The notes beneath the pieces are model-generated. The model was given only the letters and a program-made list of their open reading frames with translations. It ran no database searches and was not told the origin of the DNA. From a virus (Duplodnaviria > Heunggongvirae > Uroviricota > Caudoviricetes), in the IMG/VR virus record IMGVR_UViG_2740892230_000018: a stretch of 6,695 bases of DNA. One strand, written 5' to 3'. Every line of letters starts with the position of its first letter. Within the stretch, counting starts at the first letter, position 1. A program made the translations under genes and the position numbers. Below, in pieces: positions 1 through 6,540 of this stretch.

Positions 1-190
1 CTGCTTCTCCTTGACCTTTCGGTCCGTAAGAGGCAATCTATATGTGACGAGCATATAGGGGCCTCACTTCGATTTATAGTCGGGTGGGGCTTTTATCTAT
101 CTGCCGTTGGTGTTCATGCCCGAGGCAGAATAGCCTCAAGCACCCGCTGCAATCCTACTTAACTCTGCCGTTACAGCAAACCGTTTTCGC

Positions 191-214
191 CCGATATGGG
201 AATTCCCATATCGG
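191..214. repeat. Perfect 24-bp palindrome ccgatatgggaattcccatatcgg, function unknown (possible protein-binding site or stem-loop)
   Basis: Read directly: positions 191-214 are self-complementary with an EcoRI-like gaattc core. No U-tract follows on either strand, so it is not a canonical intrinsic terminator. Confidence 0.5.
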
Positions 215-299
215 AATGAATTCAGTTCACCTGGCGAGGCTTAGCGTACAATTTTTTCCGTTTTGTGAGCTGCCCCTACATGCCGCTGGCGCGGCATCC

Positions 300-327
300 G
301 GAAAAAGAATCCACGTCCTGAAGGACG
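300..327 (-). terminator. Weak candidate intrinsic terminator downstream of the binding-protein gene
   Basis: A 5-bp GC stem (314-318 / 323-327, loop tgaa) lies 7 nt past the stop at 334-336; on the - strand it is followed after 3 nt by auucuuuuucc. The stem is short and the U-tract is not directly adjacent. Confidence 0.2.
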
Positions 328-333
328 AGGATG

Positions 334-1092
334 TCAAGTGCCTTTCCTGGTCCAGCCATATTTTTTGAATGCAGGCGCCGCTTCATCGGTTTGTAGCCAT
401 TCTGCAAATCGACGGGTTTCATCATTTGCATCCTGACGTACTGTAATGTTCATATCACGCCATATCACGTAGTCTGGCGCTATTTCCACGACATCACCAA
501 TTTCTGGATTACTGGCTGCCCAGTCAGCCCAGGTTATCCAGACATCTGCTCCAGGCTGATTCTCAAGAGCCTTACGTGCAGTTCCGCTATTGGGCGCATA
601 TAAAATAATATTTTTTCGGATTGCGGCGACAGTTTCTATATTCCCTTTACGTCCGGCAATATCTTCCCAGACGCCAGTGCCTGATGTATTACTGGTACCA
701 CCACCATCATTAACAATTACGCCAATCCCAGGTCTGGTCAGGTCGTCAATACTCCGGATATTTTTAGGATTACCTTTCTTTACCAGTAAAATACTTTTTC
801 GCAGATAAAGAGGCTGAATATCTTTTTCACTGAAGCTGTCTTTATGGTCCCGAATGATAGCCAGAGCAGATTGTTCTGATGCGCCAAACAAGATATCTGC
901 ATTTTTTTTGGCATCTTCATTCCATTTGTTCTGTGGGCCGTAATGAACGTTCACTATAATACCTGTTTTTTCGGCATAAAGTTTGGCTGCATCAAGCAAG
1001 GCTGTATGCGGGCCACCAGGACCATACAGATTGATATCAGCATAAGCAGCAGAAGACAGGAATATTAAAAAACCTGCCATTATGTTCCTCAT
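334..1092 (-). CDS. Secreted periplasmic substrate-binding protein, type 2 PBP fold, ModA (molybdate/anion)-like; orphan (no permease or ATPase nearby)
   Basis: 252-codon ORF, ATG at 1090-1092 with GGAG 6 nt upstream. N-terminus MRNIMAGFLIFLSSAAYA-DINLY looks like a Sec signal peptide with an AYA cleavage site. Architecture and the C-terminal motif ...FAEWLQTDEAAPAFKKYGW resemble ModA-type binding proteins from memory; not verified by search. Confidence 0.7.
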   Translation of the reverse strand: MRNIMAGFLIFLSSAAYADINLYGPGGPHTALLDAAKLYAEKTGIIVNVHYGPQNKWNEDAKKNADILFGASEQSALAIIRDHKDSFSEKDIQPLYLRKSILLVKKGNPKNIRSIDDLTRPGIGVIVNDGGGTSNTSGTGVWEDIAGRKGNIETVAAIRKNIILYAPNSGTARKALENQPGADVWITWADWAASNPEIGDVVEIAPDYVIWRDMNITVRQDANDETRRFAEWLQTDEAAPAFKKYGWTRKGT

Positions 1093-1256
1093 AAAAAACT
1101 CCTTTTATTGGTTATCATGAAATAAAGTTATAAACACTACAAATAATATATATTACATCCAGATAAACTTATCCGACTTTACCTCGTGCATAGCTTGTTA
1201 TTTAAAGTCAACAAAATAAGGAAAATTATACGCATATTGAAGAGTATAAACCTTAC

Positions 1257-1284
1257 ATGTTGATTACATTTTTGTAATCAACAT
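1257..1284. repeat. 12-bp inverted repeat with 4-nt spacer (atgttgattaca tttt tgtaatcaacat) in the AT-rich region upstream of the binding-protein gene; candidate operator
   Basis: Read directly. It lies about 165-190 nt upstream of the start codon at 1092, inside the AT-rich segment 1093-1340. No flanking U-tract, so a protein-binding site is more likely than a terminator. Confidence 0.4.
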
Positions 1285-1343
1285 CCTGTTTGGAATAGCC
1301 AGCCTTTAATGGATAACTATTTCTGACAATGCAATGAGTATAA

Positions 1344-1928
1344 TCAAGTCCATCTTCCACTGAGAATTAGAGGCGGCATGCTTTTTCCGGCTCTTGCCGG
1401 ATATCCGTAATTGTCCATAATCTGCAGATTTATACCTTCTGCATGACCTGTCAGCGAAAATTTGTCCGGTGTTTCTACGGGAATGACATCAAAAGTTACA
1501 CGCACTCGCGTTACCGTGTAGACCTACTTTCCTGCACTTGCAAGATCACAGTGGTGTAACCGTAACAGGAATTTATTCTCTGGACCGGCAGTAAATCCCT
1601 GAGTGGCGTGGTTCCCATATCAATTTCCCGCCAGGCAGCCTCCATTGCCAGCGTACAGGCTGGAGCCATGACCTGCCCTTTAAATCTGGCCCGACCATCC
1701 CACCGGACGTGTTCTTCTCCCCTGAACTTAGGTACAGTCATCTCCAGTGGCACAAAAGTGTCAGCGCCATAATTTTTGACCGTTATCGCGCTACGGATAT
1801 TTTGTTGACTGGTGAAAATCACCCCGCAGAATCAGGCTTATTCCCTTAACCCGGGCTTTCATCCTGACCGCCGCCTCACTACGACCAATCAGACTGCCGA
1901 TGCATTTTACCTTCATTGTTAGTATCAT
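1344..1928 (-). pseudogene. Unknown phage ORF split over three consecutive reading frames (frameshifted gene, sequencing error, or three small overlapping genes)
   Basis: Three - strand ORF pieces tile the gap between the DUF1627 gene and the AT-rich spacer: 1928->1791 (MILTMKVKCIGSLIGRSEAAVRMKARVKGISLILRGDFHQSTKYP), 1822->1511 (GTG start, 103 aa from the ORF track) and 1523->1344 (VYTVTRVRVTFDVIPVETPDKFSLTGHAEGINLQIMDNYGYPARAGKSMPPLILSGRWT, my translation). Frame switches fall within about 30 nt and 13 nt overlaps, the first at homopolymers (aaaa 1815-1818, cccc 1822-1825). No homolog recognised. Confidence 0.3.
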
Positions 1929-1951
1929 GATTTCAGGCCTGCACCATCCGC

Positions 1952-2686
1952 TCATTGCCCGGACTTCCGACAAATCCCGGCAACCATATCCCGGTGCTTG
2001 TTCAGCTCCCGCAGCGCGGCGCAGACTCGCTCCCACTTCTGGACATGATTCTTCGCCCTACGCAGTTCGCGATTTGCCATATGCAGCGATGGCAAAATCA
2101 AATCATCTTCTCGCGTTGCAGTAAACGATGGCAGCGACTGCACAATGTCCGCCACAGTTTCTGTTTTAATATCTTCCTGTGTTGCATCTTTCTGTACCGG
2201 TAACGCAACACCGGCTGGCTGAGGAAAGGCTTTACCATCGGTTTCCGCTACCGATTCAACTTTCGGCTCTGCTGGTAAATTATCACCTGGTATGCAGTAA
2301 CGAATTTTACCGTTCTGGTTTACGCGAATCAGACGACCTTTGCTGATTGCCATTGCCAGCGTTGAAGCAACTTTGCGGGATGTTGTACCGAACAGCGTAG
2401 CCAGTTCATCCGCCGTTTGTGGTCCGCGTTGTTCAATCGTCGCGGTTAAATCGCACTCTGAGATTTTCGCTTCTGTTGCCGTGGTGGTTTCTTCTGGCGC
2501 TGGCTGTTCCTGCTGAACGTTGTTATCAGCCACACGCCAGGTGTATACGCTTTTATCAACGAAGCCAGCCTTTTTCAGTTCCCACAGCTCGTTCAGTACT
2601 TCTTCACGACTGATATCAAGGCGCGCAGCCAGCTCTACCGACGTGGCTTTTCCCATCGCTTTCAGTGCGTCAAAAACAGTCTCCAT
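1952..2686 (-). CDS. Lambdoid prophage hypothetical protein, DUF1627-like, with N-terminal winged-helix-like region
   Basis: 244-codon ORF, ATG at 2684-2686 with GGAGG 6 nt upstream, 33 nt after the P-like stop. The N-terminus [43 protein letters not shown] looks like a wHTH. Family name is from memory of E. coli prophage annotations. Confidence 0.7.
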
Positions 2687-2719
2687 AAATTTCCTCCCGG
2701 TAAAAAATCACTTCTCAAC

Positions 2720-3385
2720 TCAAACAAAACCAGCCGCTTTCCGGCGTTCATATTCCTGTTTCAGCAACTCAATTGGCGTTGGCCCCGACGGGCGTTTGGG
2801 GGCCGCCAGTTGTCGCCGGACTGGCGGAACGCTCAGGCCGTTACTAACATGCTTTGCCCATTTCGTCAGTTGCCGTTCTGCAAGCCGTTTTAATTCCCCT
2901 TCGGTCATCTGGCGCTCAATCCCCTTTGAACGCATCTCGAGGCAAATGTGATACAGCACAGGCTGAGACCACGGGTACTTATCACTTCCGTCGTATCGCC
3001 AGGACTCATTGCGCCAGCGGCAGTACTCCTCCATCACAGCATCCACCGTCAGACCGAATGGATTGGCTCCGCTTTTCGAAATCAGTGCCACAAACTCAGC
3101 CAGGTCCGGAGGCCATGTTTCACCCGCCCGGCAGCAGTCCATGCACTGGCGGCAGACCTGCCGGATTTGCTGCTCAGTCATCGCGCCAATCTGTGCAATC
3201 CAGAGCTTCGAAGGTGCGGCCCCGTTCTTCTGTGTCCAGCGGTTCGAATACACCTCCCCCATAAGCTCCCACAGCTTCCAGACCGTTTCCGTCGCTGATA
3301 AATCCGTTTTCACGTTCCCACTGCTCACGTGCTGCCCGAATTTCCTGAACTGCCCGTGATGCGGTGCCACCTGGTGCTGCTGCAT
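2720..3385 (-). CDS. Replication protein P-like (lambda P family, DnaB helicase loader)
   Basis: 221-codon ORF, ATG at 3383-3385 with GGGGG 6 nt upstream. Recalled lambda P aligns along its length (for example VDAVMEEYCRWR...YPWSQPVLYHICLEM... against lambda VDMVYEYCRKRGLYPDAESYPWKSNAHYWLV...). No Walker A motif, consistent with P rather than DnaC. Alternative starts at 3262 or 3181 would shorten the overlap with the O-like gene. Confidence 0.75.
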   Translation of the reverse strand: MQQHQVAPHHGQFRKFGQHVSSGNVKTDLSATETVWKLWELMGEVYSNRWTQKNGAAPSKLWIAQIGAMTEQQIRQVCRQCMDCCRAGETWPPDLAEFVALISKSGANPFGLTVDAVMEEYCRWRNESWRYDGSDKYPWSQPVLYHICLEMRSKGIERQMTEGELKRLAERQLTKWAKHVSNGLSVPPVRRQLAAPKRPSGPTPIELLKQEYERRKAAGFV

Positions 3386-4312
3386 GGTTTACCCCCTTGC
3401 TGACTGGTTTAACCTGCGCCCTGACGTGATTTACGTGACGGGCGAATTTCTGCTCCCACTGAATCTGCGTAAACACTTTCCCCTCCGCTGCCCAGTAGTC
3501 CCGGAAGGCGGCAAGTTCAGCAGGTGTAAATTCTGTCTCCGGCAAAGCCATCCCCCACAACGCAGCCCGTCGTCGAAAATCCCGTGACGGATACCAGCTA
3601 TCGCTCATCGGGAATTTTCCGATGGGTTCGCTCAGGCCATACAGGAATACAGGGGGGGCTGCCTGTAACGACAAAACTTCCTGCTCACTGGNNNNNNNNN
3701 NGTCATCGGAAATTTTCCGATGGGTTCGCTCAGGCCATCCAGGAATACAAGGGGTGCTGCCTGTAACGACAAAACTTCCTGCTCACTGGTCGGAGCACTC
3801 TCGCGTGCGTTATGTGTGGGGTTTAGATCTTTGGGTTCCTTTGGGTTCCGTGATCCGTTTTTGGGTGTCTTTGATGGAAAATTTGGGTGTCTTTGGTTAT
3901 TTTCCATGCAGCTAAGAGTTCCGTTTTTGGGTCTGTTTTGTGCTGAAACATAACCATTTTCGGTACTGTTTTTATTAACAGCACCAATTTTACCCACCTT
4001 TAAAGACTCCCGTTTTTGGGTGTATTCAGGCTCGGCAACACTTTCTTCTACACCGATAAGTCGGTACACCACAATTTGCTTTGTTCTGCCTTTTCTCTCA
4101 CCGGTATCAACAATTAACCCAATCTCCATCAGGTGTCGTAAGCTGTCCTGCACAGTCTTTTTGTTTAGTTCCGTTACTTCTGCCAGTGCAGATACAGACG
4201 GGTATGCACACAAATCGGCACCGCACATATCAGCAAGCCAGGTCAATACAGACTTACTGGATGAACTGCCGGTTTTCACCTTTTTAGCCCATCGTAGTGC
4301 ATCGATACTCAT
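3174..4312 (-). CDS. Replication initiator, O-like: N-terminal helix-turn-helix domain, iteron-encoded linker, DnaT-like C-terminal region; gene model crosses an assembly join
   Basis: N-terminal part from ATG 4310-4312 (MSIDALRWAKKVKTG...), GGGG about 5 nt upstream. C-terminal part is the 3174..3674 ORF (..SDSWYPSRDFRRRAALWGMALPETEFTPAELAAFRDYWAAEGKVF..). The two parts share the peptide LQAAP(L/P)VFL(D/Y)GLSEPIGKFPM on either side of the N run 3692-3701, so one copy is redundant and the true length is uncertain. Gene order matches lambda O then P. Confidence 0.6.
3605..3789. other. Probable assembly join: N run 3692-3701 flanked by two ~87-bp near-identical copies (3605-3691 and 3703-3789)
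   Basis: Copies differ at about 5 positions (for example catacagg versus catccagg). Exactly 10 N. Both copies encode the same O-like peptide. Confidence 0.6.
3829..4027. repeat. Putative phage origin of replication: iteron array (core TTTGGGT, consensus about CCGTTTTTGGGTGTCTTTG) plus an adjacent AT-rich segment, inside the O-like gene
   Basis: Read directly: tandem ctttgggttc x2 (3829-3848), ccgtttttgggtgtctttg (3855-3873), tttgggtgtctttgg (3883-3897), ccgtttttgggtctgttttg (3921-3940), cccgtttttgggtgtattc (4009-4027), with a more AT-rich stretch at 3941-4008. On the coding strand the repeats encode the PKNG-rich linker (RPKNGT, TPKNGSRNPKEPK). Lambda likewise has ori iterons within O. Confidence 0.55.
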
Positions 4313-4956
4313 ACAAACCCCTGGCAGACATTTGTTTATCTGCAAAGTAATATTGATATTGCTGACGATACGCATGCTTGAAAGCAATAGCTTTTTCTAT
4401 AAGCTCGTCAGTCTCACGTTCCACAACAGCTGGATCCGCAAAAAGCAGCCCGGACTCCACCACATCGCCATATTCTTTGTTTAATCCGGCGATCATGTAC
4501 GTAATGCTTTTTCCATCACTGATCTCACGATACAACCTGAAATCACTAATTCGGATAGCCTCCATAATTGCCGGAATCAGCGCCGTGAATTTTTTCCGCT
4601 TATCCCTGGTGTCGATAGCTTTCCAGCGTTCGAATATCTTCACCCGGTTAACGCCCAGCGCCCGTTGATCAACCTCGCCATCATTAAACGTGACGCGTTG
4701 AACATCGATGTTCGGGCGTTCTTTCAGAGCCCAGAATGCTTCCGTGATTAATATCGTCGCNNNNNNNNNNCCCGGCGATCATGTACGTAATGCTTTTTCC
4801 GTCAGTAATTTCACAATACAATCTGAAATCGCTGATCCGGATAGCCTCCATAATTGCCGGAATCAGCGCCGNNNNNNNNNNCTGCTCCTGTGTCATTCCT
4901 GGTCGGCATACCCAGGTATCCAGAGCCTCACAAACCTGTTCAGTGGTGATTTTCAT
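4284..4956 (-). CDS. Hypothetical early-region protein in the cII/ydaT position; gene model interrupted by an assembly-join block
   Basis: The N-terminal 25 codons (ATG 4954-4956, MKITTEQVCEALDTWVCRPGMTQEQ) overlap the dicC-like stop by 17 nt, suggesting translational coupling. The C-terminal 158 codons (4284-4760) are open up to the N run with no internal ATG. Both flanks are on codon boundaries at the gap edges. Function not recognised. Confidence 0.45.
4761..4881. other. Probable assembly artefact: 100-bp variant copy (4772-4871) of 4485-4584, bounded by two 10-N runs
   Basis: About 91% identical to 4485-4584. It encodes ALIPAIMEAIRISDFRLYCEITDGKSITYMIAG against ...RLYREISDGKSITYMIAG in the main copy. 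It sits about 190 bp from its cognate, so it looks like a displaced allelic mini-contig. Confidence 0.55.
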
Positions 4957-5714: not shown

Positions 5715-5908
5715 ACATCAAGAAGCTTAGGTTTTTCTACACAAAAAGCTTGACCATAACTCTTAGGCTATTCTAAATTCTACTCATCAAGACACCGCAC
5801 GGNNNNNNNNNNTCCCTTTTTTTCGCCACTCTCTGTAATAAAAAGCATAAACTTTCAAATGCTTGTGTTTTTTACATCAAAAAACTTAGGTTTTTCTACA
5901 CAAAAAGC

Positions 5909-6300: not shown

Positions 6301-6540
6301 TAAGCGAAACAGCACCGCGAGGAATCAGNNNNNNNNNNTGGTCTTGCCGAAGGCGAAGAAACTCTCAGCTTCAACGAATTTAAACAGGCGCTTTCCAGTT
6401 CGGCAAAATCTAACGGCTGATAAGCGAAACAGCACCGCGAGGAATCAGNNNNNNNNNNTCAGCTTCAGTGAGTTTAAACAGGCGCTTTCCAGCTCGGCAA
6501 AATCTAACGGCTGATAAGCGAAGCAGCACCGCGAGGAATC
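6221..6540. other. Probable assembly joins: three variant copies of the ydfB 3' end and ydfC ribosome-binding region, separated by N runs 6329-6338 and 6449-6458
   Basis: 6221-6328, 6339-6448 and 6459-6540 are collinear variants with a few substitutions (gctcacagc / actctcagc, caggtg / caggcg, taatggc / taacggc). The first two both end at ggaatcag. Confidence 0.6.

Follow-up and report, generated by a model that had tools for sequence, protein, structure and literature searches.

Positions ~1290-1758 (minus strand) of the prophage DNA studied here very probably hold the non-functional remains of a minor pilin gene of the papH/pixH type, truncated at both ends and lying beside paa/adfO in an OI-57 prophage, a reading to which we assign a probability of about 93% on the strength of sequence comparisons. 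A 10-bp deletion, a 5-bp deletion, a nonsense codon, and the loss of both gene ends together mean that no pilin would be made from it. The original prediction, which concerned positions 1344-1928, had proposed a single ~195-codon reading frame broken across three frames and had offered three explanations, namely a pseudogenised cargo gene, a sequencing error in a real gene, or three small overlapping phage genes. The first of these was correct in kind, as the collinear homology and the lesions indicate, but the boundaries were wrong. Throughout, the window means the whole stretch of DNA that was analyzed (6,695 nucleotides), and coordinates refer to it unless another record is named.

Source prophage and existing annotation

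Window positions 1100-2100 are 100% identical to many STEC chromosomes (O157:H7, O26, O103, O111, O121, and O145), and the window derives from O-island 57 (OI-57) of EHEC/STEC, where it makes up the early region of the lambdoid prophage. In EDL933, OI-57 carries adfO/paa (z2053) and ckf (z2054) (PMC8565820); the relic goes unmentioned in that review of OI-57. Equivalent prophages in the phage collection bear the name PPompW.

The PGAP annotation was taken from NZ_CP027544.1 and converted to window coordinates. All genes are on the minus strand, in this order:

Beyond the left window edge, minus strand: hokD
334-1092, minus strand: paa, "AcfC family adhesin Paa"
1253-1786, minus strand: pseudogene "fimbrial protein; frameshifted; internal stop" (MJ68_RS31160 in NZ_CP027544.1)
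1791-1955, minus strand: 54-aa hypothetical protein
After the 54-aa open reading frame (ORF), minus strand: DUF1627, replication protein P, DnaT-like/O-type gene, YdaT, Cro/CI, and repressor

The feature is already annotated as a pseudogene in RefSeq and is an ordinary gene remnant. To PGAP's generic name we add the assignment to the PapH/PixH subtype, a precise map of the lesions, both points of truncation, and the identification of the 54-aa neighbor as a truncated phage helix-turn-helix (HTH) gene.

Reading frames in the gap

Between paa (334-1092) and DUF1627 (1952-2686), the ORF list and a three-frame translation show the following pieces filling the gap:

1253-1360, minus strand: 35 aa, frame C (not named in the original prediction)
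1344-1505, minus strand: 53 aa, frame B
1511-1822, minus strand: 103 aa, frame C
1791-2036, minus strand: 81 aa, frame B (originally taken to start at the ATG at 1928)

The list and the translation bear out the claim that three consecutive minus-strand ORFs fill an otherwise gene-free gap. A single ~195-codon frame running across three frames is another matter: just two frames are in use, alternating as C, B, C, B from the downstream end; the extra downstream piece had been missed; and the upstream piece belongs to a different gene. Intact PapH-type proteins are also 195 aa long, but the agreement with the 585 nt (195 codons) of the predicted feature is fortuitous. A Pfam search of the individual ORF pieces returned zero matches.

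Relationship to PapH/PixH-type minor pilins

In P pili, PapH halts elongation of the fibre and serves as its anchor at the usher. Pilus termination requires a subunit that is incapable of further donor-strand exchange, a structural and biochemical property of the expressed protein that is established for PapH (literature and PDB 2J2Z) and has no bearing on the relic, which would not be expressed.

The ORF pieces were joined into a repaired translation, which served as the query against a large protein database. It matched over 100 proteins with PF00419, each 195 aa long, with E values from 1e-57 to 1e-41, and the names given by their sources to some of these 195-aa matches include PixH, PapH, and type 1 fimbrial protein. 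P0004 (195 aa), the closest of the intact homologs, shows 69% amino acid identity to the repaired translation; it aligns with the PapH crystal-structure chain 2J2Z_B over aa 24-195 (E 6.5e-80) and passes the Pfam threshold of PF00419 (Fimbrial) with 29.8 bits versus a cutoff of 25.6. The family, which the original prediction did not recognize, is therefore recognizable as that of the PapH/PixH-type minor pilins. The profile searches with the repaired relic itself gave no significant match: there were zero Pfam matches at E<=10, so that the PF00419 gathering threshold was not reached, and NCBIfam returned weak FimG/FimI/LpfA matches alone (E 0.04-0.15). For this reason, the family assignment rests on direct homology in the large protein database.

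Gene context points the same way for the intact relatives. The P0004 gene comes second in operons that run papB-like regulator, major pilin, H gene, PapC usher, PapD chaperone, PapJ-like, pilin, adhesin, and EAL protein. One intact homolog with operon context is located on a plasmid, and the papH/pixH position is that between the major pilin and usher genes. True papH genes reach at best ~70% nucleotide identity to the relic in blastn, over short stretches. The original prediction had suggested a joint TBLASTN of the peptides against prophage genomes in search of a single intact homolog of about 195 aa; such single intact homologs exist, but their setting is the pap/pix-type chaperone-usher operons of chromosomes and plasmids, and not prophages.

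Compared with PapH itself (the terminator/anchor minor pilin of P pili in uropathogenic E. coli; PDB 2J2Z, 2XG4, and 2XG5), with which P0004 aligns over the whole mature protein, the relic still shows recognizable motifs (EEHV.WDGRA.FKGQV.APACTL, RVRVTFD, and GINLQI.DN.GYPAR.GK.MPP). Unlike PapH, it is truncated at both ends, carries two frameshifts and a stop codon, has no papC, papD, or papA neighbor, and resides in a prophage. From its sequence we conclude that the relic cannot terminate or anchor a pilus. Its closest intact relatives are PixH and the genes of unnamed pix-like operons on E. coli chromosomes and on ETEC and other plasmids (85-88% nucleotide and 60-69% amino acid identity, all of 195 aa); these are intact genes in complete operons, whereas the relic is an isolated 470-bp fragment. 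The RefSeq/PGAP pseudogene beside paa in OI-57-type prophages is the same sequence as the relic, under a generic name only.

Anatomy and lesions of the relic

In a blastn comparison with all complete E. coli genomes, pilin homology is confined to window 1294-1758 (85-86% identity), and below ~1290 the alignment falls to background. DNA alignments that included L002 put the nearest intact genes at 87-88% nucleotide identity to the relic. When P0004 was aligned to the window by tblastn, three collinear segments emerged, which together with the lesions and flanking sequence give the following picture:

1290-1758, minus strand: whole relic of the PapH/PixH-type minor pilin gene, codons 24 to ~185 of 195 aa
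1759-1783, minus strand: junction filler of ~25 nt, matching neither pilin genes nor the phage backbone
1592-1758, minus strand: segment A, codons 24-79, with 42/56 residues identical to P0004 aa 24-79
1591/1592, minus strand: 10-bp deletion (gene nt 238-247; intact sequence CAGAACAGTC), the first real frameshift
1358-1591, minus strand: segment B, codons ~84-161 in the other frame, with 66/82 residues identical to P0004 aa 80-161 and one internal stop
1524-1526, minus strand: nonsense codon TAG, which is CAG (Gln105, "GKQVYT") in intact genes and gives "GK*VYT" in the relic
1357/1358, minus strand: 5-bp deletion (gene nt 482-486, GGAAT), at which the original frame is regained
1290-1357, minus strand: segment C, codons 163 to ~185 (aa 163-182 in tblastn)
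1253-1289, minus strand: read-through tail of the last ORF piece ("...KQDVDYKNVINM*"), non-homologous to pilin and forming the upstream end of the paa module

Segment A holds the mature N-terminus and the conserved "FKGQV.APAC" motif. The alignments around the nonsense codon read AAAGTAGGTC versus AAAGCAGGTC, and the two deletions sum to 15 nt lost. The PGAP pseudogene model reaches 1253 and includes the non-homologous tail. An 18-bp deletion followed by residual 3' homology, once apparent at this end, was rejected, being better read as the place where homology ends: the match to the plasmid paa module extends to 1278-1286.

Within the mature protein, homology to PapH/PixH runs from codon 24 to codon ~185 and no further. 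Codons 1-23, with the start and the signal peptide, are missing, so the relic lacks an intact ~195-codon ORF with a start and a Sec signal peptide; codons ~186-195, encoding the last beta-strand ("...ALRFKLDYE"), are missing as well, and with them the C-terminal strand. Neither is the relic situated in a usher/chaperone operon, being flanked by paa and the phage HTH/DUF1627/P region, and no chaperone, usher, or other pilin gene was found near it. Collinear homology, disabling lesions, and the fixation of those lesions across genomes mark it as a pseudogene, with which PGAP concurs. The dN/dS of the relic versus intact genes is 0.36-0.43 and that of an intact pair 0.14, values that rest on ~55 substitutions and mix the time before and after inactivation. 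Conserved Trp and Gly positions have been replaced in the relic (for example, EYWGEE to KFRGEE and VWWDG to VRWDG). Both the ratio and the replacements fit a gene that may have evolved under relaxed constraint.

The real changes of frame, located by tblastn and DNA alignments, are at 1591/1592 and 1357/1358 and not at 1815-1825 and 1511-1523, where they had been placed at first. Positions 1511-1513 and 1344-1346 are out-of-frame read-through stops, from which the true frame changes lie ~80 nt and 13 nt away. A G-run at ~1823-1826 is indeed present and polymorphic, in line with the earlier mention of homopolymers, but the frame of the pilin relic does not change there.

These coordinates also bear on the view that the region comprises three or four small independent nin-region-like phage genes with their own starts, or one gene with programmed frameshifting. 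Some phage and prophage records do call the pieces as proteins (P0001, P0002, phrog_29700, and phrog_30109), and the ORFs abut or overlap, as is common in phage genes. The pieces are, however, collinear with one 195-aa pilin, their frames change at deletions relative to intact genes and not at slippery sites, the segment with the best homology holds an in-frame stop, and the ORF ends extend into non-homologous read-through. Moreover, the sole truly phage-derived piece (1791-1916) is half of an 84-aa gene that has lost its HTH, and among related prophages without paa none has the pilin pieces. We consider independent small genes or programmed frameshifting very unlikely, and the three small overlapping phage genes of the original prediction give way to pieces that align in order to one pilin gene broken by deletions and a nonsense codon. 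The ORF calls P0001, P0002, and phrog_29700 and the 54-aa "hypothetical protein" are gene-caller artefacts and no proof of function.

The upstream piece, a truncated phage gene

The piece upstream of the relic had been grouped with the other two, whereas its matches (phrog_30109 and a homolog in L008) identify it as a separate phage gene:

1791-1916, minus strand: 3'-truncated "DNA-binding protein" gene, the first 41 codons of an 84-aa phage HTH gene

The 54-aa ORF (1791-1955) matches phrog_30109 from residue 14 on. In related prophages without paa, an 84-aa "DNA-binding protein" gene comes after DUF1627, and an intact 84-aa homolog at L008 2879-3133 shows 91% nucleotide identity to window 1784-1920. 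This intact protein starts MKVKSIGSLIGRSEAAVR..., and the window reads MKVKCIGSLIGRSEAAVR... from the ATG at 1916. By this alignment, the predicted native start is the ATG at 1916 (MKVKC...), not that at 1928 or PGAP's 1955. Phage homology stops at ~1784, and the window has a TAG (1793-1791) in place of the intact gene's CAG. Pfam HTH matches in the 84-aa protein are found only at aa 44-77, which is the lost part, so a full-length HTH is not present in the window.

Distribution of the lesions among genomes

Among complete E. coli genomes, 544 records match the relic over 1253-1790 with >=99% identity (at least 99%), and 33 more do so at 95-99%. A more diverged allele from a chicken isolate (L009, 98.9%) has the same three lesions. 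It also has 1 extra G in the G-run at ~1823-1826, where PGAP reports the small ORF as frameshifted; a change of this type puts the truncated phage ORF and the first pilin piece into one reading frame, as in the fusion protein P0001 (147 aa).

These data weigh on the second original explanation, a sequencing or assembly error in an intact, functional pilin gene. In its favor, the window was scaffolded from draft sequence and contains six N-runs, and the nearby G-run varies between genomes. On the other hand, the lesions are a 10-bp deletion, a 5-bp deletion, and a substitution, none of them within a homopolymer, and they recur in the 544 complete genomes and in the diverged allele. Positions 1-3691 form one contiguous block that is 99.76% identical to the finished chromosome, and even after repair of all three lesions the start codon, signal peptide, and C-terminal strand are still absent. 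An error of this kind is scarcely credible, and the population data (the 544 genomes and L009) led us to discard it.

An apparent evolutionary intermediate was considered as well. The 1.2-kb Logan contig L006 (from ERR13033386) encodes P0110, which combines an intact 5' end with the relic's deletions, and has the major pilin gene adjoining. Nucleotides 1-885 of this contig are 100% identical to a plasmid pix-like operon (L012), and nucleotides 853-1198 correspond to the L009 relic allele with one difference, so that the switch falls inside a 33-nt common stretch. No complete genome holds this mosaic. Given the 33-nt switch and its absence from complete genomes, we rejected P0110/L006 as an intermediate and regard it as a probable short-read (k-mer) assembly chimera.

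The paa/adfO module and its linkage to the relic

On its downstream side, the relic borders on the adhesin gene module:

266-1286, minus strand: paa/adfO module, consisting of the AcfC-family adhesin CDS (334-1092; Pfam SBP_bac_11) and ~190 nt of AT-rich upstream sequence

The GC content at 1001-1300, the paa upstream region, is 28-35%. Plasmid paa homologs (86-89% identity) match the window from 266 to 1278-1286, which places the junction of the paa module with the 3'-truncated end of the relic at ~1287-1293. Pilin sequence was searched for beside these plasmid homologs as a donor context of paa plus relic, and none was found.

Records with the relic at >=95% identity (at least 95%) number 577 and those with paa at the same threshold 578; linkage between the relic and paa of the STEC type is close to perfect. 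Because nearly all copies are near-identical, the population data are silent on selection. One strain has an IS2/IS3-associated deletion variant of the prophage (L010, NZ_CP027325.1, 3001-4914), in which paa survives along with 67 nt upstream of the relic boundary (window 1253-1319). Missing from it are the replication genes and the remainder of the relic. As this variant has paa without the relic, the relic is dispensable.

Two repeats were noted in this part of the window. A perfect 12-nt palindrome (window 1257-1284, ATGTTGATTACA ... TGTAATCAACAT, with a 4-nt spacer) lies in the paa module, ~165-190 nt upstream of the paa start, and may serve as an operator-like site or fold into a hairpin. 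The relic itself is bracketed by a perfect 13-nt inverted repeat (1206-1218 and 1798-1810, AGTCAACAAAATA / TATTTTGTTGACT), whose arms fall upstream of paa and within the truncated phage gene, respectively; our own rough estimate of its chance occurrence is ~0.03 for a region of such size.

Could the relic DNA have been retained for an acquired non-coding role, as regulatory or insulating sequence upstream of paa or as part of an early-operon transcript? The near-perfect linkage to paa of the STEC type (577 against 578 records) and the inverted repeat around the relic would agree with this. Recent clonal spread of one prophage module explains the linkage equally, however, with copies that are mostly >=99% identical (at least 99%); plasmid paa alleles hold ~190 nt of their own upstream sequence without the relic, and L010 does without it too. 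In the relic region, the Rfam scan found zero families, promoter and terminator scans stayed at background level, and a repeat scan gave nothing pointing to a non-coding function. We regard retention for such a role as highly improbable.

Origin and significance

Returning to the reading of the fragment as a dead pilin gene, which no result contradicted, its origin can be sketched as follows. The fragment and paa sit side by side past the replication genes of the OI-57 prophage. A ~470-bp internal fragment of the terminator-pilin gene of a pap/pix-type operon would have become joined to the paa module, and may have come together with paa by illegitimate recombination. Insertion of paa plus the fragment would have cut off the 3' half of the 84-aa phage HTH gene. 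The relic presumably persists only through its linkage to paa in a recently spread prophage; any order of the truncation and the internal lesions would be conjectural.

The fragment might alternatively mark the original home of paa/adfO (a pix-like fimbrial island), or it might be co-opted cis-acting DNA or a short translated product that affects paa or prophage early transcription. If true, this would account for a fragment beside essentially every STEC-type paa allele; we deem it a long shot.

For annotation, the outcome is that the "gene-free" gap by the paa/adfO virulence gene holds two gene remnants, a pilin fragment and half a phage HTH gene, and no undiscovered gene. The bounds of the paa cargo module (~266-1286, plus the relic to 1758) could aid in tracing the movement of the adhesin gene between plasmids and prophages. 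Outside annotation, the significance is slight.

Other observations in the window

The draft nature of the window is evident from six runs of 10 N (3692-3701, 4761-4770, 4872-4881, 5803-5812, 6329-6338, and 6449-6458), and the pieces between them are duplicated ends or short paralogous copies. For instance, on the finished genome the start of 3703-4760 lies 87 nt before the end of 1-3691, and the 101 nt of 4771-4871 are a duplicate. In such a scaffolded draft, the "repeated peptides" of ORFs that span the N-gaps are assembly artefacts.

At the left edge, Rfam identifies a sok antitoxin RNA (RF01794, 86 bits) at window 1-145 (minus strand), part of the hokD/ckf type I toxin-antitoxin locus just outside the window. 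In the reference genome, PGAP calls the O-like replication gene region, with its DnaT-like ssDNA-binding domain (window 2720-4387, minus strand; L001 8075-9125), frameshifted or partial, which suggests that the prophage is also replication-defective.
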